DNA from: Bacillota bacterium
Lineage (GTDB): Bacteria; Bacillota; SHA-98; UBA4971
Length of the DNA stretch: 64,000 nt
Assembly (NCBI GenBank): GCA_014360195.1
Contig: JACIXY010000003.1
Location: forward strand, 17,100-81,099
Direction: 5' to 3'
A program made the translations under genes and the position numbers. The notes below the pieces were generated by a model that was not told the DNA's origin, did no database searches, and saw only the letters and a list, made by a program, of their open reading frames with translations. Below, one piece after another: positions 362-54,173 of the stretch (positions are counted from its first letter, which is position 1; every line of letters begins with the position of its first letter).

Positions 362-781
362 ATGAGGGTGAACGATACAACGGAGTACCATGAGCCCCAT
401 ATGCGGGTATTAAGGATCGTTCAAGACTGTGAAGCCATATGTGAAGATACAATTGCTGTTATATTGGCGAGACCAGACGTCCAGCCAAGGAGGACACAGC
501 TCCAATTGCTGCGCGACTGTGCGGACATTTGTACCTTAACTGCGAAATACTTTGCACGCAACAGCACTTTCTCAAGGCACATGGCCCATCTCTGTGCGAT
601 AGTGTGTGAGGTCTGTAGAAATGAGTGCCTGAGGCACTCCGACCCAGAATCGCAGCACTGCGGCCGTGTTTGCCTGGAGTGTGCAAGGGAGTGCAGGGCT
701 TTTGCGGGCCACCCCGGCTATCCCGGCCCTGGTAGCGGTGATATGTTCGGAGTATACTCCGAACCGGAGAAGAAGGACTAA
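362..781 (+). CDS. Cysteine-rich four-helix-bundle (DUF326-type, copper-binding-like) protein
   Basis: Repeated C-x3-C-x2-C type motifs (DCEAICEDT, DCADICT, CAIVCEVCRNEC, CGRVCLECAREC). Start is uncertain: ATG 362, GTG 368 (GGAGGG + 6 nt) or ATG 401. The TAA stop lies inside repeat R1. Confidence 0.7.
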   Translation: MRVNDTTEYHEPHMRVLRIVQDCEAICEDTIAVILARPDVQPRRTQLQLLRDCADICTLTAKYFARNSTFSRHMAHLCAIVCEVCRNECLRHSDPESQHCGRVCLECARECRAFAGHPGYPGPGSGDMFGVYSEPEKKD

Positions 782-904
782 GTGAGGGTGCGTTACTTCT
801 TGTCCCTTTTCCAGTGGTTGCCGGGTCGCCGGTGTTGCACTCTCTCTTTGAGTCACCGGCAACCCTTCCCCAGAAGTTGGAGGCATTTCCGCACCCTCAC
901 TTAG
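778..904 (+). repeat. R1: TIR-bounded hairpin element, short form (MITE-like)
   Basis: CTAAGTGAGGGTGCG (778-792) and CGCACCCTCACTTAG (890-904) form a perfect 15-bp terminal inverted repeat. Central hairpin is GCCGGTG-ttgcactctctctttgagt-CACCGGC. Same architecture as R2-R10. Confidence 0.9.
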
Positions 905-1014
905 AGGGGGCGGTTGGGAAAGCGGCCCGGGCATGTGCTGCCAGGGCCGCCGGAACCTGAAACCGTGTCCATCCTGCGCCGGGGTGGTCGCCTTCCTTCA
1001 AGATATGCAATAAC

Positions 1015-1557
1015 CTACGACGCCACCCGGCATCGAGGGCACTTGATGAAGTCCTCTCGTTCGAGCACCATCAGGATGACCTTCCTGGGGGATTTTCCCG
1101 CCTCGAGCTTCCGGGTCATTATCCACTCCTTGCGGAAGCCGCACTTCTCGAAACACTTGACAGCAGGGACGTTCTCCGCCAGCACGCGCAGGTAAATTCG
1201 GGTCAGCTTCGTGTTGCTGAAGACGTACTCAAGCAGACAGCTTACGGCATCCTGCCCGTAGCCCCTGCCTCTGTACCGATCGTCGCCAATCCTCACGACA
1301 AGCTCGGCCTCACGTTTGCGCCAGCTTATCTCCACGAGGCCGATGTCTCCGATGAGCGAGCCGTCGCGAGCTTCGATGGCGAACATCCTCGCCGTCCGGG
1401 AACGCAGGATCCTTTCGTAGTCCTTTCGGTTATCGAGGTGCCGGTCATCGCTTGGTCCGGGCACTGCTGCAACGTAGTAGTCCAAGTCCCATCCACAGAC
1501 AGTTTCCAGGTCTTTTTCGCCCAGCGGGCGAAGTACTACTTTTATTCCTTCGATCAC
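1015..1557 (-). CDS. GNAT family N-acetyltransferase (RimJ/RimL-like)
   Basis: Acetyltransferase core (RIGDDRYRGRGYGQDAVSCLLEYVF, NVPAVKCFEKCGFRKE). The track ORF extends to 1671, but GTG at 1557 has AGAGGTG 8 nt upstream and gives a typical product of about 180 aa. Confidence 0.75.
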   Translation of the reverse strand: MIEGIKVVLRPLGEKDLETVCGWDLDYYVAAVPGPSDDRHLDNRKDYERILRSRTARMFAIEARDGSLIGDIGLVEISWRKREAELVVRIGDDRYRGRGYGQDAVSCLLEYVFSNTKLTRIYLRVLAENVPAVKCFEKCGFRKEWIMTRKLEAGKSPRKVILMVLEREDFIKCPRCRVAS

Positions 1558-1717
1558 TTGCGCGACACCTCTATTTCTGTTCTTCACCTCCCCACCTGTC
1601 GCAGAAAAAGTTCGACCGTACGAGGGCAATACCTTCATGTAATTATATCCGCTTCTAGCAGCTGCGGCCATGGATGCGCCCGCGATTCGGACGGTATCAC
1701 GGCGCTCGGGTAGCCCC

Positions 1718-1978
1718 TTACCTGGGCTGCACTATGAGCTTAATAGCGGTGCGTTCCTCGCCATCGATCTCGACGTCAGCGAAAGCGGGTATCATGACCA
1801 GATCCATGCCGCTCGGCGCCACGAAGCCCCGAGCGATCGCAACGGCTTTCACGGCCTGGTTGAGCGCCGCGGCGCCTATGGCCTGCACCTCAGCGAAACC
1901 GCGCTCCCTCACTACGCCGGCGAGGGCACCCGCAACTGAGTTCGGGTTCGACTTTGAGGACACCTTGAGAACTTCCAT
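1718..1978 (-). CDS. spoVS: Stage V sporulation protein S
   Basis: 86-aa protein MEVLKVSSKSNPNSVAGALAGVVRE...AIGAAALNQAVKAVAIARGF, the characteristic SpoVS sequence. Confidence 0.9.
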   Translation of the reverse strand: MEVLKVSSKSNPNSVAGALAGVVRERGFAEVQAIGAAALNQAVKAVAIARGFVAPSGMDLVMIPAFADVEIDGEERTAIKLIVQPR

Positions 1979-2074
1979 GTATAATTCCTCCTAACATGGT
2001 TGGGACTACCTGCTGCCATGTTCATAGTTATATGCTGCTAGCCAGATTCCTGCTAATCGCATGTTCACATTGTG

Positions 2075-2104
2075 AAAAAAGCTGGGCCGCGCATACGCGC
2101 GGCC
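2075..2104 (-). terminator. Rho-independent terminator downstream of ymdB
   Basis: Minus strand reads GGCCGCGC-gtat-GCGCGGCC followed by cagcTTTTTT. 8-bp GC stem at 2085-2092/2097-2104, T-tract at 2075-2080. Confidence 0.6.
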
Positions 2105-2120
2105 GGACGATCTTTTAAGG

Positions 2121-2912
2121 TCATGCGCTCTCCACTGCAAGCACTCTCTCGATGCTCTTAGCCTTCCCCGTCGCCCCGTCAATCGTCACCACAGCCCCGG
2201 AGATCTGCGCGCGGCCCGATGCAGTCTCGAACTTCGCAGGTAGTCCGGTAAGAAACCGCCCGATGATGATGTCTTTCCGCACCCCGATCACCGACTCAAC
2301 CGGACCTGTCATTCCGAGGTCGGTAATAAACGCCGTCCCGCCGGGCAGGACCCTCTCATCGGCCGTCTGAACATGCGTGTGGGTGCCGACCACACACGCG
2401 ACCCGACCGTCAAGGTACCAGCCCAAAGCGACCTTTTCAGAGGTCGCCTCGGCGTGGAAATCCACAACGAACACGTCACACCTTGAGGACAGTTCCTCGA
2501 GGATCCTGTCGGCCGTGCGGAACGGGCAGTCGATCGGCGCCATGAAGACCCGGCCCGCAAGGTTGACCACACAGAGACGCAACCCGCTTGCAAGCTGGAC
2601 CACCGTCGCGCCTCTCCCCGGCGCCCCCGGAGGATAGTTCGCCGGTCGTAGCACCCGCTCGCTGGTGGCCAGTATCTGGTAGAACTCTTTCTTATTCCAC
2701 ACATGGTTGCCCGTGGTGATGACATTCACGCCGCAGCCGAAGATCTCGTCCGCCGTGTCCGCAGTGAGGCCAAAGCCCCCTGCCGCGTTCTCCCCATTGG
2801 CGATCACCGCATCGGGTCGCAACTCCTGTACAAGACCAGGGAGCAGAACCCGGCAGGCCCTGCGCCCTGGCTTACCCACGATATCGCCGATGAAGAGAAT
2901 CCTTAGAATCAT
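2121..2912 (-). CDS. ymdB: YmdB-type metallophosphoesterase (2',3'-cyclic-nucleotide 2'-phosphodiesterase, TIGR00282 family)
   Basis: MILRILFIGDIVGKPGR, NGENAAGGFG, GNHVWNKKE and DFHAEATSEK motifs. Conserved position downstream of rny. Confidence 0.9.
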   Translation of the reverse strand: MILRILFIGDIVGKPGRRACRVLLPGLVQELRPDAVIANGENAAGGFGLTADTADEIFGCGVNVITTGNHVWNKKEFYQILATSERVLRPANYPPGAPGRGATVVQLASGLRLCVVNLAGRVFMAPIDCPFRTADRILEELSSRCDVFVVDFHAEATSEKVALGWYLDGRVACVVGTHTHVQTADERVLPGGTAFITDLGMTGPVESVIGVRKDIIIGRFLTGLPAKFETASGRAQISGAVVTIDGATGKAKSIERVLAVESA

Positions 2913-3487
2913 GACCTGGTCCGCTCGCTCCGCTTCTCGCTCTGCTTGTTGAAGACGAGCACCCGCCCGTCGTCGCGGAAACCGATGAGCTTTCTGTGCT
3001 GTATGGTCTCCTTAAGATCTTCCAGCATATTCTCTATCATTTCGTCCTGGAACACGAGATCTTCGTCGAAAGCCGCTTCATCCGTCACGCCCTCGGTCAC
3101 AAGCGAGGACCCCAGTTGGCCCCTGGCAAACTCGATTATGAGCGATATCTCCTCCTGGGTCAGAGTGGCGGCGTCTCTGGAGATCTCGACCAGGGACACC
3201 CCGTCGTAGTCACGCCGCTCCACCCGCAGCATTGGGGACATGCCGTGGACCAGCGCCGCATACCCCTCGACACTTTCGTGCAAGCCATCGCGGAATGCCT
3301 TCCATACATCTTCCGAGATCGGCCTCGACACCATGAACGTGAACTTGAGCACCTTCCCCTGAGGAACGAAGTTCACGGTAGCTATCTCGGGGTATCGTAC
3401 GAGTATGGAGATGAGAAGGCTCACGCTGTTCGCGGTGCCATCGTCAACTGCGCGAGACTCACCAACACGCCCTGCCACTTTGACCAC
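2909..3487 (-). CDS. Hypothetical protein between rny and ymdB
   Basis: 192-aa ORF whose stop overlaps the ymdB start (ATGA-type overlap at 2909-2912). Acidic C-terminal half; I recognise no family. Start is GTG 3487 or GTG 3478 (GAGGGAGG upstream). Confidence 0.6.
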   Translation of the reverse strand: MVKVAGRVGESRAVDDGTANSVSLLISILVRYPEIATVNFVPQGKVLKFTFMVSRPISEDVWKAFRDGLHESVEGYAALVHGMSPMLRVERRDYDGVSLVEISRDAATLTQEEISLIIEFARGQLGSSLVTEGVTDEAAFDEDLVFQDEMIENMLEDLKETIQHRKLIGFRDDGRVLVFNKQSEKRSERTRS

Positions 3488-3606
3488 CCTCCCTCAACAC
3501 CTACAACAGGATTCTCTACTCGCGCCCAAACTCCTGCTTGAGGCTTTTTCAGAAGGATATGGCAGGGTGGGATGTTCCCGCCTTGCCTCCACCTTTTGGT
3601 CTCGCA

Positions 3607-5142
3607 TCACTTCGCGTAATCAACCACGCGCGTCTCGCGGATGACGGTGACCTTGATCTGGCCCGGGTACTCAAGCTCTTCTTCGATCTTCTTCACGATA
3701 TCCCGCGCAAGCCGGACCGCCGCCAGGTCATCGATCTTTTCGGGCTTCACCATTATTCTGATCTCGCGGCCGGCCTGAATCGCGTAGGCCTTCTCCACAC
3801 CATCGAAGGAGTCGGCAACCTCCTCCAGTTTCGTCAGGCGCTTGATATAGGCCTCCAGCGTCTCGCGTCTCGCGCCGGGCCGCGCCGCTGAAATCGCGTC
3901 CGCCGCCTGGACCAGGACAGCCTCGATCGTCTTCGGCTCCTCGTCCCCGTGGTGCGTCGCGATGGCGTGAATCACCTCCGGCGACTCCCTGTACTTACGT
4001 GCCAGGTCAACCCCTATCTGGACATGAGGACCTTCGACCTCATGGTCGACGGCCTTACCGATGTCATGGAGCAGGCCCGCCCGCTTCGCCACCGCGATGT
4101 TCGCCCCAAGCTCAGCGGCCATGCCCGCCGCGAGATGCGCAACCTCAAGAGAGTGCTTCAGCACATTCTGGCCGAAGCTGGACCTGAACTTCAGCCTCCC
4201 CAGAAGACGTATGAGTTCGGGATGGAGACCGTGCACCCCCGCCTCGATGGCGGCGCTCTCTCCCTCCTCCTTGATGATGGCTTCCACTTCCTTCTGGGCT
4301 TTCTCCACCATCTCCTCGATGCGCGCCGGGTGGATCCGCCCGTCGGAGATCAGTTTCTCCAGAGCCACCTTGGCGATCTCCCGCCGCACCGGATCGAAAC
4401 CGGACAGGATAACAGCCTCAGGAGTATCGTCGATTATCAGGTCGATTCCGGTAAGCGTCTCAAGGGCCCGGATATTCCTGCCCTCACGCCCGATGATTCT
4501 GCCCTTCATCTCGTCATTTGGAAGAGAGACCACCGACACGCTGGTCTCGGCCACGTGATCCGCCGCGCACCGCTGGATGGCGGCTGCCACAATCTCTCGG
4601 GCGCGCCTGTCCGCCTCCTCTTTCGCCTGTGCTTCGATGTCCCTTATCATGACCGCGGCCTCATGGCGGATCTCGTTCTCGATATCCTTCAGGAGAAGCG
4701 CCTTCGCTTCCTCCGACGACAGCCCGGATATCCGCTGGAGCTCGGCCCTTTGCTCCGCGTGCAGCCTTGCGAGTTCCTCCTTCGCCGCCTCAAGCTCCCG
4801 CTCTTTTCTGGTTATGGACTCCTCTTTGCGTTCGAGCGCTTCCAGTTTCCTGTCGAGGCTTTCTTCCTTCTGAAGGAGCCGCCTTTCGGTTCTCTGGAGC
4901 TCAGCCCGGCGGGTCCGCTCTTCCTGCTCGATCTCGTTGCGGAGCCGGTGCGCCTCCTCCTTGGCTTCCAGCAGGATCTCCCTTTTGGCAGCCTCGGCCT
5001 CTTTCTCAGCCTCTTCAACGATCCTCTTCGCGGCAAGCTCCGCCGACTCGATCTTGGCCTCTGCCAGGGTCTTCCTGGCGACGTACCCGAGGGCAGCTCC
5101 AACCACGACAGAAATGACGACTGCTACTATGACTGCAATAAT
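3607..5142 (-). CDS. rny: Ribonuclease Y
   Basis: Coiled-coil N-region, KH domain ([21 protein letters not shown]) and HD domain ([12 protein letters not shown]). The track ORF starts at GTG 5106, but the expected N-terminal TM helix ([21 protein letters not shown]) is encoded in frame upstream. I therefore place the start at ATT 5142-5140, 8 nt after GGAGGTG (see finding). Confidence 0.9.
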
Positions 5143-6241: not shown

Positions 6242-7273
6242 TCAACTTGTCTCGCCCTCAGCCGAGCTTGACGGGCCAGGCGAAGGCAGCTTGAGACCTG
6301 CGAGATGCCGGATCTTGTTCTCGATCTCAGCAGCAAGGTCTGGATTATCCCGCAGGAACTCGCGGGCGTTTTCTCTGCCCTGCCCTAGCTTTATGTCGCC
6401 GTACGAGTACCAGGTGCCGCTTCGCGTTATTATGTCATTGGCCTCGCCCAGATCGAGTATGCTACCCTCACGGGAGATACCCTGGCCGTAGATGATGTCG
6501 AACTCAGCCTCGCGGAAGGGAGGCGCGATCTTGTTCTTGACGACTCTAGCCCTGGTGCGACTGCCGATCATCTGCTGCCCCTGCTTCAGCACCTCGACCC
6601 GCTTCACCTCAAGCCGTATGGTCGCATAGAACTTGAGCGCCCGCCCCCCAGGAGTAACCTCCGGGTTTCCGAACATCACCCCGACCTTCTCACGAATCTG
6701 GTTGATGAATATGGCGCATGTGCGTGACTTGCCGATGGCGGCCGTAAGCTTGCGAAGCGCCTGCGACATCAGCCTCGCCTGCAGCCCCACGTGGGCATCG
6801 CCCATCTCACCTTCGATCTCCGCCCGAGGGGTAAGGGCCGCCACAGAGTCGATGACCACCACATCCACCGCGCCGCTGCGCACCAGCGCCTCCGCTATCT
6901 CCAGCGCCTGCTCTCCTGTGTCGGGCTGGGAGATAAGAAGGTTGTCAATATCCACCCCGAGCCTCTTCGCATAGACCGGGTCAAGGGCGTGCTCCGCGTC
7001 AATGAACGCAGCGATCCCCCCGGCTTTCTGTGCTTCGGCAATGACGTGCAGGGCCACTGTGGTCTTGCCGGAAGACTCCGGGCCGAATATCTCTATCACT
7101 CTCCCCCGAGGCATCCCGCCTATCCCGAGCGCGATATCCAACGACAGAGCACCGGTGGGAATCGCCTCGACGGAGAGGCGGGCGTCGGCCTCACCCAGCC
7201 TCATGATTGAGCCCTTTCCGAACTGCTTTTCTATCTGTGACAAGGCCATCTCGAGAGCCTTCTCCTTCTCCAT
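6242..7273 (-). CDS. recA: Recombinase RecA
   Basis: [28 protein letters not shown], Walker [10 protein letters not shown], and [17 protein letters not shown]. The track ORF has a 32-codon 5' extension; ATG 7273 has GGAGGA 5 nt upstream. Confidence 0.97.
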
Positions 7274-7485
7274 CGCGTTCCTCCTTCTCAGGAATGTGTC
7301 TTCTGCCAGAGGCGTGCCCAAACCGTGTTCCCCAGCACCCTGCGTGTCCTGTGCCGGTTTCCTGTACACGGGTCATACAGGTCGACCGAAGCCATCGGAG
7401 CGCAAGTGCGCTTGCCCCATTCTCGGGGCAGCCTGAGACGCGCGGCCATCGCAGCGAGCGGTAGCGGGACACGCCGCACATTTGA

Positions 7486-7629: not shown

Positions 7630-7753
7630 CTAAGTGAGAGTGCGTTGGTTCTTGTCCCCTTGCCAGTAGTTGCCCGGTTGACGGTGTTGCGTTCTCTCCT
7701 TGAGTCACCGGCAACCTTCCAAGAGTCGGGAGCATTTCTACACCCACACTTAG
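7630..7753 (+). repeat. R2: TIR-bounded hairpin element, short form
   Basis: Ends are CTAAGTGAGAGTGCG ... CTACACCCACACTTAG. Core is GACGGTG-ttgcgttctctccttgagt-CACCGGC. The thpR TAA stop (7752-7750) lies in the right end. Confidence 0.9.
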
Positions 7754-8328
7754 GAAAGCGAAACGATCGCAACCGGGCTGTATATCGGCCCGCGGCTCGC
7801 AAGCTCGCTCGCTACCAGCTGGACCGTGTCAACTCTCATCGTACCCTCCAGGGGCGCACTGGACGAAAGCCGGTCCGCGAGCGCATGCAGGTTGCGGCCC
7901 GACCTCACCCGTCCTATAGTGAGGTGCGGCGAGATGCCTTTGCCTTCACTCCTGAAGCCCTCTGCCTTCATCGTCTCCTCCACTATGGAGGCGAGTGTCA
8001 CGAAGGGCTGCCTACCGACGCTCACCCCGACCCATATCACCCGCGGGTCCTGGATCCGCGGGAAGGCTCCGGCAGCCCCCAGACCCAGCTCGAACGCGTC
8101 TACACCTCCCACGCAAGCCTGGAGCCTCTTGGTCAAGGCCTCCAGCCTCGATTCCTCGACGTCACCAAGGAACTTGAGGGTGAAGTGAAGGTTCTCGGGC
8201 TCGACCCACTTGACATCCGCTCCGCTCTGGGCAAGGTGCCTCTGAAGGGCTACCACCTGCGGGCGAAGGGCCGGGTCCAGAAAAACGGCGATGAAACATC
8301 GAACGGACCTCAAATTGAAACCTCCCAA
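7750..8328 (-). CDS. thpR: RNA 2',3'-cyclic phosphodiesterase (2'-5' RNA ligase family, ThpR/LigT)
   Basis: Two H-x-T-x motifs (HFTLKFLG and HLTIGRV), typical of the 2H phosphoesterase family. Confidence 0.85.
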   Translation of the reverse strand: MGGFNLRSVRCFIAVFLDPALRPQVVALQRHLAQSGADVKWVEPENLHFTLKFLGDVEESRLEALTKRLQACVGGVDAFELGLGAAGAFPRIQDPRVIWVGVSVGRQPFVTLASIVEETMKAEGFRSEGKGISPHLTIGRVRSGRNLHALADRLSSSAPLEGTMRVDTVQLVASELASRGPIYSPVAIVSLS

Positions 8329-13466: not shown

Positions 13467-13606
13467 TTAAGTGAGGGTGCGCTAGTTCTCGCTCTTCTTC
13501 CAGTAGTTGCCGGGTTGCCGGTGTTGCACTCTCTCTTTGAGTCACCCTCTTTGAGTCACCGGCAACCCCTCCCGAGAGTCGGGAGCATTTCTGCACCCTC
13601 ACTTAG
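13467..13606 (+). repeat. R3: TIR-bounded hairpin element, short form with an internal 14-bp tandem duplication
   Basis: Ends are TTAAGTGAGGGTGCG ... TGCACCCTCACTTAG. CTCTTTGAGTCACC is duplicated (13533-13546 and 13547-13560) inside the central hairpin. Confidence 0.9.
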
Positions 13607-21149: not shown

Positions 21150-21152
21150 CCG

Positions 21153-24280: not shown

Positions 24281-24478
24281 AAAGTGGGGGTGCAGAAATG
24301 CTCCCGACTTTTGGGAGGGGTTGCCGGTGATTGCATGAGGGGTGTCAAAATCCGGCCACCGGCCTGATGGGCTGGATTTTGGCGAAGCGCGCCCCGCTTG
24401 GAGCGCAGTCCCCGAGTGCAACACCGGCAACCCGCCAACTACTGGAAACAGGGCAAGGACTAACGCACCCTCACTAAG
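24281..24478 (-). repeat. R4: TIR-bounded hairpin element, long form (extra apical module of about 75 nt), reverse orientation
   Basis: The reverse complement aligns end to end with R8 and R10. Core is GGTTGCCGGTGTTGCACTCGGGG...CCCCTCATGCAATCACCGGCAACC. Ends are AAAGTGGGGGTGCAG and CGCACCCTCACTAAG. Confidence 0.9.
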
Positions 24479-24603
24479 TCCTTCTTCGCTTTCCGGTACT
24501 TGCCAGGTAGCCGGTACCTGCCAGGTAGGCGGTTCTACCCTCTTTCTCTGAGCCGCCGGGAACCTTTCCCAAAAGTCGGAAGCGATTCTGCACTCATACT
24601 AAG
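24475..24603 (+). repeat. R5: divergent family member, head-to-head with R4
   Basis: Same layout but diverged sequence. Left arm has a tandem CCGGTAC(T/C)TGCCAGGTAG x2, central hairpin is GGCGGTTC-loop-GAGCCGCC, right arm is CTTTCCCAAAAGTCGGAAGCGATTCTGCACTCATACTAAG. Confidence 0.7.
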
Positions 24604-37918: not shown

Positions 37919-39295
37919 CTACGGGACCCGGGCATCTCCTGCTTCACCGGCACCAGGCGCTAAAGTCTCGCCCACAAGATCGTAGTCGCCCGCGTCAACT
38001 ATTCTCACACGCCGGAACTCCCCCGGTGCCGGGTGCTCGTTGCCGATGTAAATGAGACCGTCTATCTCCGGCGCCTCCGCCTGGGAGCGACCCACTGTGA
38101 CAAGATCGCTCTCCTCCGAACGCCCCTCGATGAGCACATCGAACACCTTACCCACCCTGGCCTCGTTCTTCTCGCGGGAGATGGTCTTCTGCACCTCCAT
38201 GGCCTCGCGCCGCCGTCTCTCCTTCACCCGTGCGGGCACCCGGCCATGCAGCCTCGCCGCCGGCGTGCCCGGCTGCGGGGAGTAGGCGAACACCCCGACC
38301 CTGTCGAGGCGGACTTCCTTCAGAAAGTCGAGAAGCCGCCCGAACTTCTCATCGGTTTCCCCCGGAAACCCCACGATGAACGTGCTCCTTATGGTGACGT
38401 CGGGCATCGCTTGCCGGAACCTCGCGATGATCTCGCGCGCGTCGTCCGAAGTCCCCCGGCGGTTCATAGCCCGGAGGATGTCGTCATCGGCGTGCTGAAG
38501 AGGCAGGTCAACATACTTGCAGATCTTAGGCTCGGAGGCCATGACCTCGATAAGCTCGCCAGTTACCCTCGTCGGGTACATGTATAGGACCCGCACCCAC
38601 CTCGGGCCATCGACCTTGCAGACCTCCCGAAGCAGCCTTGCGAGGGACGGGTGCCCATAGATGTCCTCTCCGTACCTCGTGGTGTCTTGGGCAATCAGGA
38701 TGAGTTCCTTCGCCCCGCCACGCGCAAGCTTCCGGACCTCGGCGATGATGGACTCCATGGGTCTCGACCGATAGGGCCCACGAAGGTCCGGGATCACACA
38801 GTACGAACACTGGTTGCTGCAGCCCTCTGCGATCTTGACGTAGGCCACATAAGGCGGGGTTGAGAGGATGCGTGGGGCGTTCTCGTCATACAGGTAGCAG
38901 GGGGTGCCGACAAGCCTGACCCGCTCGCCCGAAAGGGCCCTCCTGACCACATCGGCGATCAGGGGAAAGTCGCCCGTGCCGACCACGGCGTCAATCTCAG
39001 GTATCTCCGCGAGGAGCTCGGACGCGAACCTCTGGGCGAGACACCCCGTAACCACTAGCGCGCGGCACCGCCCCGCTTCCTTGTGTTTCGCGAGGTCAAG
39101 TATGGTGTCGACCGCCTCCTGTTGCGCCTCACCTATGAAGGCGCAGGTGTTCACGACAATGACGTCGGCGTCCCCCGGGAACGACGTCATCCGGTAGCCC
39201 GCCGCAGTGAGGAGGCCCGCCATCACCTCGGAGTCCACCAGGTTTTTTGCGCATCCCAGGGATACCAGGGCAACAGCTTCGCTCATAACACTCAC
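37919..39295 (-). CDS. rimO: Ribosomal protein S12 methylthiotransferase RimO
   Basis: MTTase N-domain (VSLGCAKNLVDSE), radical SAM motif CSNQCSYCVIP, and a C-terminal TRAM domain. Confidence 0.92.
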   Translation of the reverse strand: MSVMSEAVALVSLGCAKNLVDSEVMAGLLTAAGYRMTSFPGDADVIVVNTCAFIGEAQQEAVDTILDLAKHKEAGRCRALVVTGCLAQRFASELLAEIPEIDAVVGTGDFPLIADVVRRALSGERVRLVGTPCYLYDENAPRILSTPPYVAYVKIAEGCSNQCSYCVIPDLRGPYRSRPMESIIAEVRKLARGGAKELILIAQDTTRYGEDIYGHPSLARLLREVCKVDGPRWVRVLYMYPTRVTGELIEVMASEPKICKYVDLPLQHADDDILRAMNRRGTSDDAREIIARFRQAMPDVTIRSTFIVGFPGETDEKFGRLLDFLKEVRLDRVGVFAYSPQPGTPAARLHGRVPARVKERRRREAMEVQKTISREKNEARVGKVFDVLIEGRSEESDLVTVGRSQAEAPEIDGLIYIGNEHPAPGEFRRVRIVDAGDYDLVGETLAPGAGEAGDARVP

Positions 39296-40436: not shown

Positions 40437-40499
40437 CTAGGTGGGGGTGCAGAAATGCTTCCGACTTTGTGGAGGGTTGCCGGTGACTCAAAGAAAGAG
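40437..40499 (-). repeat. R6: truncated half-copy (right arm + half hairpin), reverse orientation
   Basis: CTAGGTGGGGGTGCAGAAATGCTTCCGACTTTGTGGAGGGTTGCCGGTGACTCAAAGAAAGAG. It ends exactly at the E2 stop codon (40500-40502). Confidence 0.8.
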
Positions 40500-41861
40500 T
40501 TAGATGCCAGTGTCAGGATCAAGCGACTCGATGATCTCCTTCACCCGTCCCAGGAACTTCGCGGCGCTTGCCCCGTCAAGCACGCGATGGTCGGCGGAGA
40601 GGGTCAGCCTCATCACCATGCCCGGGACCACGGTGCTTCCCTTCACAACGGGCCGCTCCCGGACGGCGCCCACCCCGAGGATCGCAGCCTGTGGCGGGTT
40701 GATTATCGCGCACAGCTCGTCCACGCCGAACATGCCGAGGTTGGATATGGTGAAGGTACCACCCGCGACATTCTCCGGCTCGAGGCGGCCCTCCCTGGCG
40801 CGGCCCGCAAGCTCCTTTGTCTCCCGGGCAATCTCAAAAAGCGTCTTGCTGTCTGCGTCATGGACGACGGGCACCACGAGGCCCTGTTCTGTCGCGACAG
40901 CCACGCCAATATTGATTTCCTGGTAGATGACGACCCCGTCGTCAGCCGCCGACGCGTTGGCGTGGCGATGCTCGGCGAGGGCCCTCGCCACCGCCTTGAC
41001 GAGGATGTCGTTGATGGAGGGCCGGACGGTCTCACCTGTTTCGCCACAGGAAACATCCCCAAGGATCCTCTCCCTGAATGCAAGGAGCGCCGTCGCGTCC
41101 ACGTCCATGGATATGTAGAAATGTGGTGCCGTCCGAAAGCTCATGCTGGTTCTCTCGGCAGAGGTCCTTCCGATAGCTGTATACGGGACGCTCGTCCCCG
41201 AAGGGGCGGTCCCCAGAGGACCAGCATGAGGCTCTCCTGCGCCACGCTCCCCTGTGGCCCTGGCAATGATATCCGCCGCCGCCCCGAGCATCCTGTCGAG
41301 GAAGGCGCGCACGTCTCCCTCCACCACGCGTCCGCCCGGGCCCGTTCCTGGGACCTTCGCGAGGTCCACGTTGTGTTCCCGGGCAAGCTTCTTTGCTGCT
41401 GGCGAGGCACGGACGACGTCACCTGCCGCCCCCGGTGCCTCGGGCCGCCCGCAGGGCGGCGTCACTCCTTCGCCGCGAGGACCTCCGATCGCGGACGCCG
41501 ACGCCCTGTCCGACCCTGCCGCCCCCTGGGGCTGCGCCGGCCCCTGATTCTCCTCTTGTCCATGTTCGGGCTCTTGCCGGGGGCCTTCGCCCCCGCCTGC
41601 CTGCCCTGGTGCACCAGCCTCGGCTGTCACCTCGGCACGCGCCACCACCGCCCCAACGGGAACGGTCTCCCCCTCGTTTACGAGGATCTCCGCAATCCTC
41701 CCATCCGTCTGAGCTTCAACGGCGAAGGTGATCTTGTCGGTGACGGCCTCGAAGAGCGGGTCTCCTTTCCTGTACGGCTCGCCCTTTGACACGATCCACC
41801 TGGCGAGAGTCCCCTCGCTCATCGTGAGGCCCAGTTTCGGCATGACGATATCCTGCAGCAT
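40500..41861 (-). CDS. Dihydrolipoamide acyltransferase (E2) of a 2-oxoacid dehydrogenase complex
   Basis: Lipoyl domain (IVMPKLGLTMSEGTLARW...AVTDKITF), E1/E3-binding domain (ASPAAKKLAREHNVDLAKVPGTGPGGRV), and catalytic DHRVLDGA. Confidence 0.9.
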   Translation of the reverse strand: MLQDIVMPKLGLTMSEGTLARWIVSKGEPYRKGDPLFEAVTDKITFAVEAQTDGRIAEILVNEGETVPVGAVVARAEVTAEAGAPGQAGGGEGPRQEPEHGQEENQGPAQPQGAAGSDRASASAIGGPRGEGVTPPCGRPEAPGAAGDVVRASPAAKKLAREHNVDLAKVPGTGPGGRVVEGDVRAFLDRMLGAAADIIARATGERGAGEPHAGPLGTAPSGTSVPYTAIGRTSAERTSMSFRTAPHFYISMDVDATALLAFRERILGDVSCGETGETVRPSINDILVKAVARALAEHRHANASAADDGVVIYQEINIGVAVATEQGLVVPVVHDADSKTLFEIARETKELAGRAREGRLEPENVAGGTFTISNLGMFGVDELCAIINPPQAAILGVGAVRERPVVKGSTVVPGMVMRLTLSADHRVLDGASAAKFLGRVKEIIESLDPDTGI

Positions 41862-41918: not shown

Positions 41919-42043
41919 CTAAGTGCGGGTTCGTTAGTTCCTCCCACTTTGCCAACATCTGGGGTTTCCCGGTGACTCAAAGAGAGAGTGTAACACCGGC
42001 AACCCCTCCCAAGAGTCGGGAACATTTCTGCACTCTCACTCAG
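41919..42043 (+). repeat. R7: short form whose central hairpin module is inverted relative to the arms
   Basis: The arms are in forward orientation (CTAAGTGCGGGTTCGTTAGTT... / ...AGTCGGGAACATTTCTGCACTCTCACTCAG). The core reads CCGGTG-actcaaagagagagtgtaa-CACCGG, the reverse complement of the R1/R3 core. The dctM TGA stop (42042-42040) lies in the right end. Confidence 0.9.
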
Positions 42044-43329
42044 TGCATAAGAAGGCCCGGAAGCCACGTCGATAGCACCGGAACGTACGTGATGATAAGG
42101 AGTGCCACGATCGCCGCGATCACAAACGGCACCACTGCCCGCGAGATCTCGTCCATGGAGATCCCCGCGATGTTGGCACCCACGTACAGGTTCACAGCGA
42201 CCGGCGGCGTGACCTGTCCGACCGCCAGGTTCACACACATGAGAATACCGAACCAGATCGGGTCCCACCCGAAGTGCGCCATGATGGGCATGAGGAGCGG
42301 CGTGAGTATATAGTAGATGGAGATGGCATCGAGCAGCATCCCGGCGATAAGGAGAACGACGTTGATGATGAGGAGCACAAGATACTGATTGGAGCTTATG
42401 GCAATCGCCGCCTGCGATACCTTCTCCACCACCCCGAGCGTCGTCATGGCCCATCCGAAGATCCCCGCGAGCGAGACGACGAGCATGACCACAGCGGACG
42501 ACACGCACGCCTCAACGAGCAATTCATAGAGGTCCTTCAAGGTAAGCGTGCGGTATATGACGAACCCCACGAAGAGTCCGTATACGACTGCGACCGCCGC
42601 TGCCTCAGTCGGCGTGAAGATGCCACCGTATATCCCGCCCAGGATTATGAGGGGCGCGATAAGCCCCCAGAACGCTTCTTTGAACGCACGCCAGACCTCG
42701 GCCAGCTTCCCGAAGGCGCCGCCCCGGTAATCGCGGGCAACCGAGATGAGAAACGCCGCGATTATCAGGAACACGCCCACCACGATCCCGGGCACTATCC
42801 CTGCGATGAACAGTTTGCCTATGGACGCCCCGGTGATCACACCGTACACGATGAAGGCGATGCTCGGCGGGATGATTATCGCGAGCCCCGCCGACGCCGA
42901 CATGAGGGCGGCCGCGAAACCTTTATCGTATCCCTCTCTCACCATCCCGGGGATGAGGATCGTCCCCAGCGCCGCCACGGTCGCAGGTCCCGAGCCAGAC
43001 ACAGCACCCCAGAAAAGGGCGGTTATGACCGTGACCACAGCAAGCCCGCCCCTGATGGGACCCACGATCAGGGAGATCAGGCGGATTATCTTATCGGATA
43101 TCTTCGCCCTCCCCATTATGACCCCGGCCAGGATGAAAAACGGGATGGCGAGGAGGGAGAATTTCGAGATGTTTGCGAAGAACACCGGCGCGAACATTGC
43201 GGAGCCGAGCCCACTGAGGTAGACCACGGCCATGCCCGCGATCCCGAGTGCCACCGCTACGGGCACCCTGGCCACCAGAAGGATGAGAAAGAGGCCCAGA
43301 AGGACGATTCCTGGATCTATCGCTGCCAC
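42040..43329 (-). CDS. dctM: TRAP transporter large permease (DctM family)
   Basis: 429-aa polytopic protein with typical DctM composition and length, following dctQ/dctP. Confidence 0.9.
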   Translation of the reverse strand: MAAIDPGIVLLGLFLILLVARVPVAVALGIAGMAVVYLSGLGSAMFAPVFFANISKFSLLAIPFFILAGVIMGRAKISDKIIRLISLIVGPIRGGLAVVTVITALFWGAVSGSGPATVAALGTILIPGMVREGYDKGFAAALMSASAGLAIIIPPSIAFIVYGVITGASIGKLFIAGIVPGIVVGVFLIIAAFLISVARDYRGGAFGKLAEVWRAFKEAFWGLIAPLIILGGIYGGIFTPTEAAAVAVVYGLFVGFVIYRTLTLKDLYELLVEACVSSAVVMLVVSLAGIFGWAMTTLGVVEKVSQAAIAISSNQYLVLLIINVVLLIAGMLLDAISIYYILTPLLMPIMAHFGWDPIWFGILMCVNLAVGQVTPPVAVNLYVGANIAGISMDEISRAVVPFVIAAIVALLIITYVPVLSTWLPGLLMH

Positions 43330-49448: not shown

Positions 49449-49955
49449 TCACTTCCGCCCGCCGAGGCCACTTGCCAGCAAAACGATGCCGGCGATGACG
49501 AGGGCGACGGGCCACAGCGCGCCGAGATTCAGCCAGGGCCAGAAATTCCGGGCGAGGAAAAGCGCCCCCACGCACACAAGGGCGATACCTATGATCCTTG
49601 CGCCGCTGTCATCTCGACGTGCGCGGCCTGTCCCCGTCGGGGCCCCCTCGCCCGGTGGGGGGCTGGCAGGCTGCGCTTCTCCCTTCAGTCTGGCCTCCAC
49701 CTCTTTCGCCCTGTCTATGACTTCCTGCCGGATACCTTCGGTTTTCTCGAACCTCTCGCTCGACTCCGCGTACGGGTTCGCCGGGATGATTATCCAGGCA
49801 ATGATGTACGCGAGCACGCCGATGCCGTCGGCGAGCGCAAGAAGTACCCACAGTATCCTCACGATCGTGGGGTCGATGTCGAAGTACTCGGCGATCCCCC
49901 CAGCAACGCCCCCGATTACGCACTCACTTTTCGAACGATAGAGCCGTTTCGCCAC
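49449..49955 (-). CDS. PspC-domain membrane protein
   Basis: KRLYRSKSECVIGGVAGGIAEYFDIDPTIVRILWVL is the PspC domain. GTG 49955 follows GAGGAG by 7 nt. Confidence 0.8.
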   Translation of the reverse strand: MAKRLYRSKSECVIGGVAGGIAEYFDIDPTIVRILWVLLALADGIGVLAYIIAWIIIPANPYAESSERFEKTEGIRQEVIDRAKEVEARLKGEAQPASPPPGEGAPTGTGRARRDDSGARIIGIALVCVGALFLARNFWPWLNLGALWPVALVIAGIVLLASGLGGRK

Positions 49956-49976
49956 CGGATTCACTCCTCACAGCGG

Positions 49977-50087
49977 CTACTTCTTCGTGCCGCAGGACCG
50001 AGTGCCTTTCTTCTTGGTGTCCTTCTCAGCCTCTTGCTTTGGCGCCGCCGGCTTCTTGGAGTCGCCGCACCCGCAGGACTCGCACAT
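49977..50087 (-). CDS. Candidate 36-aa Cys/Lys-rich small protein (unannotated sORF)
   Basis: MCESCGCGDSKKPAAPKQEAEKDTKKKGTRSCGTKK. The ATG follows GGGGGTGAAGAAGG. The stop lies a few nt before the pspC SD. Below the 60-aa ORF-track cut-off. Confidence 0.4.
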   Translation of the reverse strand: MCESCGCGDSKKPAAPKQEAEKDTKKKGTRSCGTKK

Positions 50088-50329
50088 CCTTCTTCACCCC
50101 CTCTCTCTCCTCATGATACCTCGTCACGACGCGGAGTCGGAAGCGCTCTTGCCGCATTGTTCGCTTATACATTCGCAATGTGGCCCCGCGATTCCTTCTG
50201 GGACACGGGAAGGTTCGACAGGACCTTGCAGCAAAAGGATATTCGTCGAGGCCCCCTGCTTGGGGCTCCGTTCCCGGAGTGCAACATCGCGAGCCGCTGG
50301 AAAGGCGGCAGCGATCTCGGAACACACAC

Positions 50330-51046
50330 TTAGAACGGGCCGCGTTCCATGAAGTCCACAAGTTCTTCGAAAGTCCCCCGGAAGTCAGGGTGGTTCTGCG
50401 CCCGGCCTCGATCGAGGAGGAAATCCTCCACGAGGTACGTTTTCATCCCTAGCGTGCCCGCGATGATGTCCTCCTCGACATCGTTGCCCACCATGAAGCA
50501 CTCCTCGGGCGTGCGACCGATGAGCGCAAGGACCTCCTCATAGTACTCGCGGTTGGGCTTGCAAAAGTGCATGGTCTCGTACGATGTCACAAGCCGGTAT
50601 GGAAGCCCTTCCAGACCTCCCCACCTCATCCGTTCTTCGATGGCGATGAGGGGGAACACAGGGTTCGTGGCTATGACGACCTCAAGACCCCTGGAGATGA
50701 GGCGCTCGATCATCCGCCGGGCGGCAGGATGTGCACGTATGCCCAGTCGATCCTTGATCTGTGGGAAATCGCTCCGGTAGAAATCGTCGAACACCGGCAT
50801 GAGCACGTCCTCGGGTATCCCTATGGCAGGGAAGAAATCCTCGGCGAACACCTCCCGGTTGGTTTTGCGCGGGTCCAGGTTTCGCACCATGGCATCGGTA
50901 GACTTCATGACCTGCCTCACAAGGAGCCCCGGCTCGACCATGTTCGCCAGTTTCGCACCGAGGGTTACCAGGTACTCCTTGACGAATGTATCGAAGTCGT
51001 AGTGAACTAAAGTACCGTCGAGGTCGAAGAGTATCGCCCGGATCAC
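50330..51046 (-). CDS. HAD-superfamily hydrolase
   Basis: ILFDLDGTLV (motif I), VIATN (motif II region), and VGNDVEEDI (motif IV-like). Confidence 0.85.
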   Translation of the reverse strand: MIRAILFDLDGTLVHYDFDTFVKEYLVTLGAKLANMVEPGLLVRQVMKSTDAMVRNLDPRKTNREVFAEDFFPAIGIPEDVLMPVFDDFYRSDFPQIKDRLGIRAHPAARRMIERLISRGLEVVIATNPVFPLIAIEERMRWGGLEGLPYRLVTSYETMHFCKPNREYYEEVLALIGRTPEECFMVGNDVEEDIIAGTLGMKTYLVEDFLLDRGRAQNHPDFRGTFEELVDFMERGPF

Positions 51047-51126
51047 ATTATCACCCCACGTGATTTCGAAACGCTGCCGCTAGAGTAGGCTGGCACGGGC
51101 AGCCATCACCCCTTCCGGCCGGTCAC

Positions 51127-51338
51127 CTAAGTAGACCGCCACAAGCAATCGCCGGTTTCAGAGAGCACACGTGCCGCGCAGGGTTGCCGGTGTTGCACTC
51201 GGGGACGGCGCCTCAAGCGGGGCGCGCTTCGCCAAAATCCGGCCCGTCTGGCTAGGCAGCCGGATTCTGACACCCCTCGTGCAATCACCGGCAACCCAAG
51301 ACTCGGAAAACGGAGAAAACTGATGACCTCATACTTAG
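51127..51338 (+). repeat. R8: long form with degenerate ends
   Basis: Ends are CTAAGTAGACCGCC ... GACCTCATACTTAG. The core plus apical module aligns with R4 and R10 (GGTTGCCGGTGTTGCACTCGGGGACGGCGCCTCAAGCGGGGCGCGCTTCGCCAAAATCCGG...). Confidence 0.85.
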
Positions 51339-51515
51339 ACACATTCAGTCCCCCCGTCTCCTGGCACCATGGAAGGATTACGAGGAGCTTCCGTCGAAAG
51401 AACCTTAAGATACATCTCCACCCACTCGGGTCCGCGTGAGGACCACCACCGGCAGTAAGCCCCACGGCAAACGGCCGGTAGACAGGGACCGGGTGCAGCG
51501 AAAGGAGCGCCTCTC

Positions 51516-51710
51516 ATGGAGTGTAACGTCAAAAGCAACATCGAGACCTGCACGTGCACTTACGAGCCCTGCCACCGCAAGGGGAAGTGCTGCGAGTGCA
51601 TAGCGTTCCACAGGGCCAGCGGGGAGTTGCCGGGATGCCTTTTCCCGCCTTCTGCCGAGCGGACGTACGATAGAAGCATCAGGCGGTTCATCGCGTGTCA
51701 CTCTCGCTAG
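51516..51710 (+). CDS. Small Cys-rich protein (DUF6485-like)
   Basis: [44 protein letters not shown]...[10 protein letters not shown]. From memory this resembles the DUF6485 family; not verified. AAAGGAG lies upstream of the ATG. Confidence 0.7.
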
Positions 51711-51761
51711 CGCCTGCCCCGCGGCAGAGGCGACAGCCCGCACGGCGAGAAGGGTCGAGGC

Positions 51762-52040
51762 ATGCCCCACTTCTACTCTGAGCCGATAGACGTCATATTC
51801 CATTCCCACCCGGGCCCGCCTGCGGCCTTCATCTGGCGCGGCGAAGAGCACCGGATAGCCTCCGTCGAGGCCGCGTGGCAGGACCATGGCGTCGGCACCG
51901 TGAGCCCGAAGCATGCCAACTGGCGCCTGCGCCGCCACCGCAATTACTACCGCGTTCGGACGGATGACGGGAGGGTCTTCGAATTCTACCTGGACCGGGG
52001 CGGCGGCAGGCGCAGGTGGGTGCTTTACCGGGAGCTGTAG
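51762..52040 (+). CDS. Small conserved hypothetical protein (DUF6504-like)
   Basis: 92 aa (…FIWRGEEHRI.SVEAAWQDH…NYYRVRTDDGRVFEFYLDR…RWVLYREL), 51 nt downstream of the previous gene. The family assignment is from memory only. Confidence 0.6.
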   Translation: MPHFYSEPIDVIFHSHPGPPAAFIWRGEEHRIASVEAAWQDHGVGTVSPKHANWRLRRHRNYYRVRTDDGRVFEFYLDRGGGRRRWVLYREL

Positions 52041-52195
52041 GCTCAACTCCGCCCGTCGGGAGGACCTCGCCGCCGGCCAGGTCGGACCACTACCCACGGA
52101 GGCTGTCACTGCCCGTCTCACAGCTTCATGGTAGCCGGGGCACCACCTTCAGGCACCCTAACGCCCGGTCAGGCAGGCCGACCGGGGAGGGACTC

Positions 52196-53068
52196 TCACC
52201 CCGCTACCTGCGCTCCACCCGTGCGCCTCGCAACCTCGGCAGAGTATGCTGACGCAAGCGCTCGTGTCACCGGGCCCGGCTTCCCATCTCCCACCGGCCG
52301 GCCGTCCACCTTCACGCACGGCACGACCTCCAGCGTGGTGCTGGTTATAAACACCTCGTCAGCTCCGGCCAGGAAACCCGGCGCAAAGAAATCTTCCACT
52401 ATCAACATACCCTTCTCGCGCGCAAGCCGCAACACAATGGACCTCGTTATGCCTGAAAGGATTCGCGGCCCCTCGGGAGCTGTATGTATCGTGCCGTCCT
52501 TCACGACGAACACGTTTGTACTGGCCCCTTCCGTAACATAGGCCCCGTCCCTTATCATGATGGCTTCCAGCGCACCGGCCCGCCTCGCCTTCTCTTTCGC
52601 GATGACATTGGGCAGAAGATCCGTGGACTTGATGTCGCACCGCAGCCATCGCTCGTCCGGAACGGTTATGACCGGAACCCCTAGAGCGGTGCGGTCGCGC
52701 GGGGCCGGCTTCGCGGGCCGGACCGTGATGACAAGGGTGGGCTTCACCGTCTCCGGAAACGCGTGGTTACGAGGGGCCCATCCCCGGGTGACTTGCATGT
52801 AGAGGACCGCTTCAGAGATTCCGCTTCTATGGAGGGCCTCGACCGCAAGCTCCCCGAGCCGGCGCGCATCTTCGGGCAGCGGCAGTTCGATGCCGGCCGC
52901 GCTTCTTTCCAGCCTGCCAAGGTGCTCCTCGAGCGCGAACGGCGTGCCGCGGTAACACCTCACGACCTCGTATACGCCATCTCCAAACTGAAACCCGCGG
53001 TCTTCGACGGACACGCGCGCCTCCGATAGCCCCATAAACTCCCCGTCCACGTATGCGATTTCCGGCAT
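52196..53068 (-). CDS. dat: D-amino-acid (D-alanine) aminotransferase, fold-type IV PLP enzyme
   Basis: Collinear with my memory of Bacillus Dat: EDRGFQFGDGVYEVVR, VTRGWAPRNH, RWLRCDIKSTDLLPNV, TEGASTNVF, and ILSGITR. ATG 53068 is preferred over the track start at 53143. Confidence 0.9.
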   Translation of the reverse strand: MPEIAYVDGEFMGLSEARVSVEDRGFQFGDGVYEVVRCYRGTPFALEEHLGRLERSAAGIELPLPEDARRLGELAVEALHRSGISEAVLYMQVTRGWAPRNHAFPETVKPTLVITVRPAKPAPRDRTALGVPVITVPDERWLRCDIKSTDLLPNVIAKEKARRAGALEAIMIRDGAYVTEGASTNVFVVKDGTIHTAPEGPRILSGITRSIVLRLAREKGMLIVEDFFAPGFLAGADEVFITSTTLEVVPCVKVDGRPVGDGKPGPVTRALASAYSAEVARRTGGAQVAG

Positions 53069-53165
53069 GTGAGCAACTCGCCCCCTCACTAGCTTCGTCC
53101 TAACCGTCTCCTTCTTTCTCCACAACCTGAGAAATCCCTCCATACTCAGACATGAGATTCAGACC

Positions 53166-53289
53166 CTAAGTGAGGATTTGTTGGCTCCTCCCGGTACACC
53201 AATATCTGGTGGGTTGCCGGTATTGCGCTCTCTGTTTGACTTACCGGCGACCACTCCCAAAGTCGGGAGCATTTCTGCATCCGCGATTA
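53166..53289 (+). repeat. R9: short form, diverged ends
   Basis: Ends are CTAAGTGAGGATTTG ... CTGCATCCGCGATTAG. Core is GGTTGCCGGTA-ttgcgctctctgtttgact-TACCGGCGACC. Confidence 0.85.
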
Positions 53290-53374
53290 GAGCACCGCGG
53301 CGCCACGCCCCTTGCCCGCGACACTCATAAAACCGCGCGAACATGAGGAAACTACACGTGTCACGGAAAGCTGA

Positions 53375-53746
53375 GTGGCGGCGATGAAGGACATACGTGA
53401 CCTGGAGCGCACAATCGTGAGGCGGGCGACGATAGTCCTTGCCGTGGCGGCGCCCCTCCTGGCAGCAGCCGGGCTTCATCGTGTCGCCTTCGGCGGCCTC
53501 GCCGGGACGGCCTTCGGCCTCGCCAGCTTCCACCTCCTGGGCGCCGCCATCACGGCCGCCGTGACGGCGGGGCCCATACACGCGCCGGCGCAGGCGGGCC
53601 TCAAGTATCTGGCAAGGTACGCCCTGACAGCACTGGTCCTGTACGCCGCGCTGCGCAGCGATGCCGGATTGTTCCTGGGAACAGTAGCCGGCATGATCAT
53701 GGTGAAGTTCATCATTCTGCTGACGGGCATCCTGGGGCCACTTTGA
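53375..53746 (+). CDS. atpI: ATP synthase protein I (AtpI-like small membrane protein)
   Basis: 123-aa hydrophobic protein with AtpI-like helices (LKYLARYALTALVLYAAL; MIMVKFIILLTGIL), upstream of atpB. Confidence 0.65.
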   Translation: MAAMKDIRDLERTIVRRATIVLAVAAPLLAAAGLHRVAFGGLAGTAFGLASFHLLGAAITAAVTAGPIHAPAQAGLKYLARYALTALVLYAALRSDAGLFLGTVAGMIMVKFIILLTGILGPL

Positions 53747-53985
53747 GCGGCTGGTCACGGGTCCACCGTCCAGCTCAGTCCGTGAAGGTTGATACTATGA
53801 GTGGGTTCCCGAATCGCCGCGAGGGCCACGTACCACGTGCCAGCCCCCGGTCGCCGGCACCAAATGAAGGTGCGCCAGACTGTTGACCTTTCCCACATCA
53901 TGGCAACGCAACTCGGTTGAGTCGCCCCACAGCCGTCGCCGTGCTCGACCAAACTGGCAGCTGCTGGCGAAGTTCAACAGTCTCG

Positions 53986-54173
53986 TGCGTTAGTTCTCGT
54001 CCCTTCTCCAGTGGTTGCCGGGTTGCCGGTGTTGCACTCGGGGGCGGCGCCCCAGGCGGGGCGCGCTTCGCCAAGAGCCGGCCCATCGGGCCGGCGGCCG
54101 GATCTTGGCACCCCTCGTGCAACCACCGGTAACCCCTCCCGAAGGTCGGCAGCACTTCTGCACCCTCACTTAG
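53986..54173 (+). repeat. R10: long form, left terminal repeat missing
   Basis: Starts at GTGCGTTAGTTCTCGTCCCTTCTCCAGTGG, so the CTAAGTGAGG end is absent. Right end is CTGCACCCTCACTTAG. Lies in the atpI-atpB spacer. Confidence 0.9.

Follow-up and report, generated by a model that had tools for sequence, protein, structure and literature searches.

RUP, from Streptococcus pneumoniae, is a miniature inverted-repeat transposable element (MITE) of the IS630 type with TA targets (PMC2229807). For IS630 itself, a 2-bp duplication in the target CTAG is listed in Table 1 of PMC2577343, citing Tenzen & Ohtsubo 1991, and an account of ISY100 describes its transposase as sufficient on its own and as binding the terminal repeats (PMC2170065). 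Here, we consider a 64-kb stretch of a Bacillota genome (assembly GCA_014360195.1, contig JACIXY010000003.1, positions 17,100 to 81,099; hereafter, the window) that contains at least 12 copies or remnants of a palindromic repeat bounded by terminal inverted repeats (TIRs). The repeat inserts at the TA of CTAG, duplicates this TA, and has been mobile recently. It represents a real, lineage-restricted, and recently active IS630-type MITE super-family in uncultured Bacillota.

The original prediction for this window listed ten such loci (R1 to R10). All ten were recovered at the listed coordinates as homologous by repeat finding, nhmmer profile searches, and alignments; two more, at 50237-50335 and ~63197-63278, had been missed, so the number of copies is at least 12 rather than ten. 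The 15-nt terminus CTAAGTGAGGGTGCG has 16 matches in the window at no more than three mismatches, with 1.84 expected, and none of 100 shuffled sequences reaches 16.

Insertion at CTAG and recent mobility

The termini are inverted repeats of 11-15 nt, AGTGAGGGTGC(G) and GCACCCTCACT. Both in the window and in its relatives the copies form the short and long classes that had been proposed: the short form is ~124-127 bp (about 120 bp between AGTG...CACT) and the long form ~197-199 bp (191-194 bp), with an overall range of copy lengths of 118-200 bp. The relatives carry mostly the long form (~42 long vs ~12 short copies in the first 69 loci). The short form retains the outer central stem, and ~85 bp of the long-form interior is replaced by TCTCTTTGAG; thus, it is a deletion derivative of the long form. 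Neither form has coding capacity, as stop codons occur at the termini and no open reading frame (ORF) is conserved across copies.

The mode of insertion is seen in three pairs of filled and empty sites, where L-numbers are locus labels for related stretches from contigs of metagenome-assembled genomes (MAGs). In the first pair, the window carries R3 (13467-13606, plus strand, short form) as GGG-tTA[AGTG...CACT]TA-G-CAGC, whose empty counterpart at the orthologous position of a relative has the sequence GGG-CTAG-CAGC. In the second, L021 has CTC-TA[...]TA-GGGAGG and L032, from a more distant MAG, has CTC-CA-GGGAGG (CCAG). The third pair has the opposite polarity: the relative L007 is filled with a long copy (7774-7969; GGCG-C-TA[...]TA-G-AGTCTC) and the window is empty, with CTAA at 37960-37963 within GGCG-CTAA-AGTCTC. 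The flanks agree with these pairs. Among 77 copies with intact ends, 62 (81%) have TA on both sides, 65 have CTA at the left, and 63 have TAG at the right, i.e., 82-84% conform to C-TA...TA-G. Because the bases beyond C-TA and TA-G are unconserved, the element boundary is AGTG...CACT.

Comparison with a genome that is ~95% identical demonstrates recent mobility. Of the six listed sites that can be compared, three (R2, R5, and R6) have the copy in both genomes, two (R3 and R4) have it in the window alone, and the R7 site has a copy of another family in the relative. In addition, the long L007 copy (7774-7969) occurs in the relative alone; thus, presence and absence differ in both directions between genomes of ~94-95% identity. 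The copies may therefore serve as strain-level markers.

The copies, which are non-coding and have 120-195 bp between AGTGAGGGTGC...GCACCCTCACT, are probably mobilized in trans by an IS630/Tc1-mariner DDE transposase. This assignment had been suggested for the window at the outset, and it agrees with the three filled/empty pairs and the 62 TA-flanked copies. The transposase would bind the TIRs over ~11-13 bp and make a 2-nt staggered cut at TA, and repair of the cut would create the duplication. The case demonstrates, from sequence only, that uncultured anaerobic-digester Bacillota of a deep lineage host an active IS630-type MITE.

The search for the transposase covered the window and ~1.05 Mb of lineage loci; MAGs usually lack assembled copies of insertion sequences (ISs). 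No transposase signature was found in the window, as had been noted before, nor in these lineage loci, which surround more than 150 copies, and a full-length IS with the same termini, the expected parent, was likewise not found in either. A regular expression for the IS630 C-terminal motif retrieved nothing relevant from the window and the lineage loci. Translated searches (tblastn) with approximate IS630 and Mos1 probes gave weak matches only, to unrelated ORFs, which is weak negative evidence. Termini followed by non-MITE sequence were, among the matches listed, mostly chance matches, variant MITEs, or composites with a nested element X described below; the orphan termini were all variants, truncations, copies gapped by N, or X composites. 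An exhaustive exact scan with the left arm returned MITE copies only and no autonomous partner.

Several observations weigh against the assignment to an IS630-type MITE. The transposase family is deduced only from the target and the duplication, because no transposase was found in the DNA searched. The junction of R4 is AA...AA and not TA...TA. Two further features, the conservation of a cross-family core above that of the termini, with compensatory changes, and a 3:1 orientation bias relative to genes, are not predicted for a selfish neutral MITE. Finally, some IS5-group elements also duplicate TA or TNA and target YTAR-like sites. Given that no cognate transposase was found and that the assignment relies on duplication and target, an origin from the IS5 group (e.g., its IS427 or IS1031 sub-groups) or from another family that duplicates TA or TNA has to be considered. 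However, a 2-bp duplication, one exact CTAG, and the symmetric C-TA...TA-G context in 82-84% constitute the IS630 signature, and AGTG directly after TA resembles the TA-CAGTG ends of Tc1 and Tc3. Hence, an origin outside IS630 appears unlikely.

The target site also accounts for the position of the copies relative to genes. As originally claimed, no copy interrupts a coding sequence: none of the 77 intact copies lies inside a gene, and in the window this holds with both gene calls and Pfam. A gene stop codon is found at or in the terminus of 23 of the 77 (about 30%). CTAG contains TAG, and the element begins with A; therefore, insertion converts a TAG stop into TAA and leaves the reading frame untouched. 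The product is C-TA-A(GTG...) on either strand, and the next frame meets TGA within TAAGTGA. Window examples of such stop junctions are LigT with R2, DctM with R7, the HAD hydrolase with the copy at 50237-50335, and ORF 362-781 with R1. The frequency of CTAG, counted over 661 kb (the window and 84 related loci), is 0.62 per kb vs 3.4 expected from base composition (~5.5-fold depletion), and 49% of the CTAG sites are within genes. Stop codon usage in the gene calls of the same set is TGA 238, TAG 148, and TAA 99.

Insertions into TAG stops would thus be harmless and accumulate at gene ends, and those inside genes would be purged. As far as can be judged from sequence data, the placement at stop codons would imply target choice combined with purifying selection rather than a host function. 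It suggests a rule by which a CTAG-targeting element could fill gene ends harmlessly, with TAG replaced by TAA on either strand.

Orientation of the copies and the shared core

Orientation was determined relative to gene calls made from simple codon statistics and checked against Pfam in the window, with orthologous sites collapsed. Among intact family-1 copies flanked by co-directional genes, those oriented against the genes outnumber the others by 20:5 in the first sample and by 10:3 in an independently seeded one, and the overall ratio is 27:8 (p = 0.002). Looser selection of copies yields 33:17, and with the majority gene strand of each locus as the reference the ratio is 55:31. Hence, the transcript usually carries the reverse complement of the consensus as first described. 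The original prediction held that the copies are mostly in the sense orientation; this has the wrong sign, because in the window most of the plus-strand copies lie between minus-strand genes. It also treated random orientation as the mark of an ordinary decaying MITE. Orientation across the relatives is indeed not random, with a bias of ~3:1, but the bias is directed against the genes. Candidate sources of the bias, all of them speculative, are a polarity caused by arms that are rich in C and poor in G, a CCUCC motif in the plus-strand RNA, and a replication-linked insertion preference, genes being co-oriented with replication.

A replication-linked bias would be explained if the repeat were a REP/BIME-like or IS200/IS605-type element, moved as single-stranded DNA by an HUH enzyme (RAYT/TnpA). 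The repeat is rich in hairpins, and its orientation is biased with respect to the majority gene strand (55 vs 31). However, such elements have neither TIRs nor target duplications, and both are present here, the duplication being demonstrated by the empty sites. The probability of an HUH-type origin is therefore very close to nil.

The long copies contain a 114-nt core, predicted to fold as a three-way junction, that is common to at least three families, each with arms and termini of its own. The termini are TA-AGTGAGGGTGCG in family 1, TA-AGTAGATCGCCAC in family 2, whose copies have the same C-TA...TA-G context, and TA-AGTGTGGGTTCAG in family 3. The core consists of an outer stem, GGTTGCCGGTG(TTGCAC)/(GTGCAA)TCACCGGCAACC, hairpin A, GGCGCCCC/GGGGCGC, and hairpin B, AAAATCCGGCC/GGCCGGATTTT. 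The outer stem is nearly invariant in the three families, and the arms and termini differ. Thus, the proposal that the interior is better conserved than the termini holds at the level of the super-family. Whole copies fold end to end. The folding z-scores of the short copies R1 and R3 are -6.1 and -6.7, those of R2, R5, R7, and R9 are weaker (-0.65 to -3.7), and two long copies score -5.3 and -4.75.

Such structures, together with the density of the copies, led to the suggestion that they act as a structured RNA module, i.e., that the copies or the core were exapted as a stabilizer of 3' untranslated regions (3' UTRs), an RNase processing site, or a terminator. Several observations are compatible with an RNA function. 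The folding energies of several copies are far below those of shuffled sequences (z from -4.8 to -6.7), many copies lie in 3' UTRs, one of them within the atp operon, and the orientation bias of ~3:1 was seen both overall (27 vs 8, p = 0.002) and in the independent sample (10 vs 3). In the main family the covariation term is only -0.93, as it contains too little variation to test the structure. The cores were compared across families in an alignment built with a covariance model.

The covariance model of the core, a check proposed at the outset, found 100 copies. In the resulting alignment, 94.8% of cells are paired and double changes occur in 20 of 39 pairs; hairpin B has compensatory changes in 10 of its 11 pairs. 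All five measures exceed those of all 500 shuffles, none of which matches the data, and the covariation score is 0.122 vs 0.02-0.05 for slid controls, although these values should be read with the caveat that the alignment was fitted to the covariance model. The compensatory changes sought by this check are thus present, but most of them separate families and hence represent few events, and the constraint they reflect is not strand-specific. The mismatches in the core include 79 G·U or U·G and 80 A·C or C·A; since these numbers are equal and the core also occurs flipped, neither strand is favored.

Further observations argue against a structured RNA. Three of 43 long copies (L024 6853-7049, L035 1886-2084, and L059 7516-7714), as well as R7, carry the core in inverted orientation within the arms, and whole copies are found in both orientations. 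Scans of the R3 and R4/R5 regions for a terminator hairpin with a T-run and for a sigma-70-like promoter identified neither in any well-conserved copy; the single match inside a copy falls in the decayed R5 and does not exceed the number in shuffles. Orthologous copies are 92%, 91%, and 66% identical, vs 84-89% for the adjacent intergenic DNA; the copies thus diverge at about the rate of their surroundings, and purifying selection on them is not clear. Finally, Rfam has no meaningful match even at E = 10. The claim of a structured RNA module was thus not upheld, and we consider an exapted RNA decidedly improbable.

An alternative is that the core is a transposon module acting at the level of DNA: a platform for the transposase or a host protein, a cruciform, or a recombination site, swapped between families by recombination. 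Its key features would be the invariant inverted 11-mers GGTTGCCGGTG/CACCGGCAACC and an additional direct copy, GTTGCCGG. A near-invariant outer stem within differing arms and termini agrees with such a module. R8, which combines family-2 arms with a family-1 core, points to exchange of the core between families, and the flips of the core, presumably caused by recombination between the inverted 11-mers, are the expected product. Strand-symmetric mismatches fit a constraint on a duplex or cruciform. On the other hand, the binding protein is putative only, and the short form, which lacks hairpins A and B, has intact termini and a new insertion (R3). Because this reduced form has newly inserted, the inner core is not necessary for movement. 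We regard a DNA-level module as possible, although doubtful in this specific form.

It is rather unlikely, if somewhat less so than an exapted RNA, that the core, with its invariant inverted 11-mers and two compensated hairpins, is a selected module, either RNA or protein-bound DNA, which is carried, swapped, and inverted among at least three MITE families and whose effect on transcripts causes the ~3:1 bias. If true, the MITE would serve to disperse a regulatory or structural cassette in the core genome of the lineage. In total, the observations fit a constraint at the level of the duplex or cruciform, with recombination among copies, better than they fit RNA. The palindromic fold and the core are best read as properties of transposon DNA (a protein-binding or recombination substrate homogenized among copies) and not as an RNA with a host function. 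On present evidence, the IS630-type MITE super-family reveals no new RNA class or mechanism.

Copies in the window and the nested element X

The window is a part of the core chromosome with a GC content of 62.6%. It encodes, among others, recA, LigT, rpe, a PASTA kinase, CorA, the 2-oxoacid dehydrogenase E2, DctM, PspC, and atpI/atpB, and the minus strand carries nearly all of the genes.

R1 (778-904, plus) is a short-form family-1 copy with perfect 15-nt termini; the TAA stop of the adjacent ORF 362-781, which has no Pfam match, is formed by TA and the first A of the element. R2 (7630-7753, plus) is a short form between recA (6242-7369, minus) and LigT (7750-8328, minus), and the LigT stop codon consists of TA and the terminal base of R2. 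The relative JAAYXB010000094.1 also carries R2, with 92% identity. R3 contains a 14-bp tandem duplication, with CTCTTTGAGTCACC present twice (13533-13546 and 13547-13560).

R4 and R5 are adjacent. R4 (24281-24478, minus) is of the long form and retains the entire 114-nt core (24319-24432); the relative lacks R4 at the orthologous site. R5 (24475-24603, plus) is a degenerate short copy without a left terminus, whose ortholog in the relative is the one with 66% identity. R4 is placed at the decayed left end of R5. R6 (40437-40499, minus) is a right-half copy abutting the 2-oxoacid dehydrogenase E2 gene (40500-41861, minus), whose stop codon immediately precedes it, and is also found in the relative, with 91% identity.

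R7 (41919-42043, plus) is another short form, in which the central loop (41974-41994) has the opposite orientation to the arms. Its terminus includes the stop codon of the DctM gene (42040-43329, minus), in the TGA variant. In the ~95% identical relative, the same CTAG site is occupied by a ~195-bp family-3 copy in the opposite orientation (L007 3605-3808), which suggests that one site was used repeatedly or that a replacement took place.

The copy at 50237-50335 (minus), one of the two absent from the first list, is the left part of an element of the sister family 3 with the terminus TAAGTGTGTGTTCC; its junction with the HAD hydrolase gene (50330-51046, minus) creates the TAA stop of that gene. 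R8 (51127-51338, plus) was originally assigned the architecture of the other copies. It does share the core of ~114 nt, but its arms and termini (TAAGTAGACCGCCACAAG...CATACTTA) belong to the sister family 2; the core itself (51182-51296) is of the family-1 type, with a core-model score of 127 bits, vs 52-80 bits for family-2 cores. R9 (53166-53290, plus) is a short form with a variant left arm, located between a class IV aminotransferase gene (minus) and atpI (plus). The second additional locus, ~63197-63278 (plus), is a decayed remnant with internal deletions, orthologous to a ~91-bp copy in JAAYXB010000075.1 (L003 1616-1706).

R10 is a real long-form copy on the plus strand, but it begins earlier than the initially assigned 53986: it spans 53860-54173, with a decayed left terminus at 53860 and another element, X, nested in the left inverted repeat. 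R10 belongs to the minority of copies oriented in the same direction as the genes. Together with X, it lies between atpI (53375-53746) and atpB (54251-54910), which normally belong to a single ATP synthase operon.

Element X (53876-53984, plus) is 109 bp long, with inverted ends (C/G)AGACTGTTGA...TCAACAGTCTC, and is flanked by duplicated GTGCG(C/T). Elsewhere X is mostly 108 bp, with inverted ends GAGACTGTTGA...TCAACAGTCTC. Each of the 12 copies detected occupies the same position within a TIR of the main MITE, in either orientation, and is flanked by a duplication of ~6 bp, e.g., CTGCAC, GTGCAT, or GTGCGT. Copies in the relatives include L055 688-795, L002 6862-6969, L088 4542-4649, L081 3807-3914, L105 85-192, L131 2002-2109, L102 6039-6157, L172 3341-3448, and L009 6929-7036. 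Thus, X looks like a MITE that inserts site-specifically into the ends of another MITE. Two stand-alone units of ~138 bp (L113 286-423 and L174 2683-2820) consist of the main left terminus, X, and the main right terminus. A deletion between two X copies, one in each end of the same element, would be expected to give this structure, and the units could be mobilized by the transposase of the main element. The modular core, its flipping, and X provide material for the study of MITE-family diversification.

Distribution and comparison with known systems

One genome for each of 185,579 species was scanned for exact matches to one 21-mer of the right arm and one 21-mer of the left arm. The former retrieved 69 stretches and the latter 85, all in the same ~7 uncultured MAGs except for one Paenibacillus match in the right-arm scan, which is ascribed to chance. 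The MAGs with copies are AS02xzSISU_21, Yes71-24, UBA6811, MAG107, MAG111, MAG124, and MAG135 (the last four from PRJNA950955). They belong to an anaerobic-digester lineage and are labeled Bacillota, Firmicutes, or Clostridia, with one labeled Betaproteobacteria. The window is ~94-95% identical to contigs of AS02xzSISU_21. MAG135, titled Betaproteobacteria bacterium, contains many copies of the element of the Bacillota MAGs (L001, L008, L011, L018, L033, and other JBLNCC01 contigs); since the copies are the same, its label or binning is probably wrong.

Many MAG contigs end within a copy, and in UBA6811 (DKEX01, L267-L313) runs of N occur between intact termini, the interior being either unresolved in the assembly or masked in the stored data. 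Both features are expected of a high-copy repeat, and contigs ending inside copies explain the fragmentation of these MAG assemblies. A candidate 'medium' size class of 138-165 bp in UBA6811 was rejected, as it reflects N runs inside copies.

By the database searches made, the family is uncatalogued. Over the whole window, Rfam gives no match at the gathering score, and with E up to 10 two copies yield only chance-level microRNA and small RNA matches (E >1); the repeat thus matches no catalogued Rfam family, a match that the original prediction had named as a refuting outcome. A long copy has no blastn match in plasmid and phage collections, and two exact-pattern scans found no match in IMG/VR viral contigs.

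Among known systems, IS630 of Shigella and E. coli shares with the repeat the 2-bp TA duplication and, as listed in Table 1 of PMC2577343, the preference for CTAG. Unlike IS630 and ISY100, the elements described here have no coding capacity, and the sampled DNA yielded no gene for a related transposase. The Correia element of Neisseria (CREE/NEMIS) is likewise a MITE with a TA duplication that is abundant next to genes, has long and short forms, and folds into an end-to-end stem-loop when transcribed (see, e.g., PMC2229807). Its host belongs to a different phylum, its IHF site and RNase III processing have no demonstrated counterpart here, and the element described here has no strand-specific structure signal. 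The termini of the Correia element, compared without alignment, are presumably different as well. The enterobacterial ERIC/IRU sequences, imperfect palindromes of ~127 bp, occupy intergenic regions that are transcribed and have orientation-dependent effects. The repeat differs from them in its TA duplication at CTAG and its recent presence/absence polymorphism, and there is no sequence relationship.

The closest parallel is with RUP, although we know of no sequence resemblance between the two, which were compared without alignment. Similar to the repeat, RUP is small (~107 bp), non-coding, bounded by inverted repeats, high-copy, and mostly intergenic, uses TA targets, and resides in a Bacillota host (PMC2229807). 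It derives from IS630-Spn1 and is thought to be mobilized in trans by an IS630-family transposase (PMC2229807), whereas no parent IS was identified for the repeat. Compared with RUP, the long form with its 114-nt core, the strict CTAG context, and the frequent stop-codon junctions are characteristic of the elements described here only.

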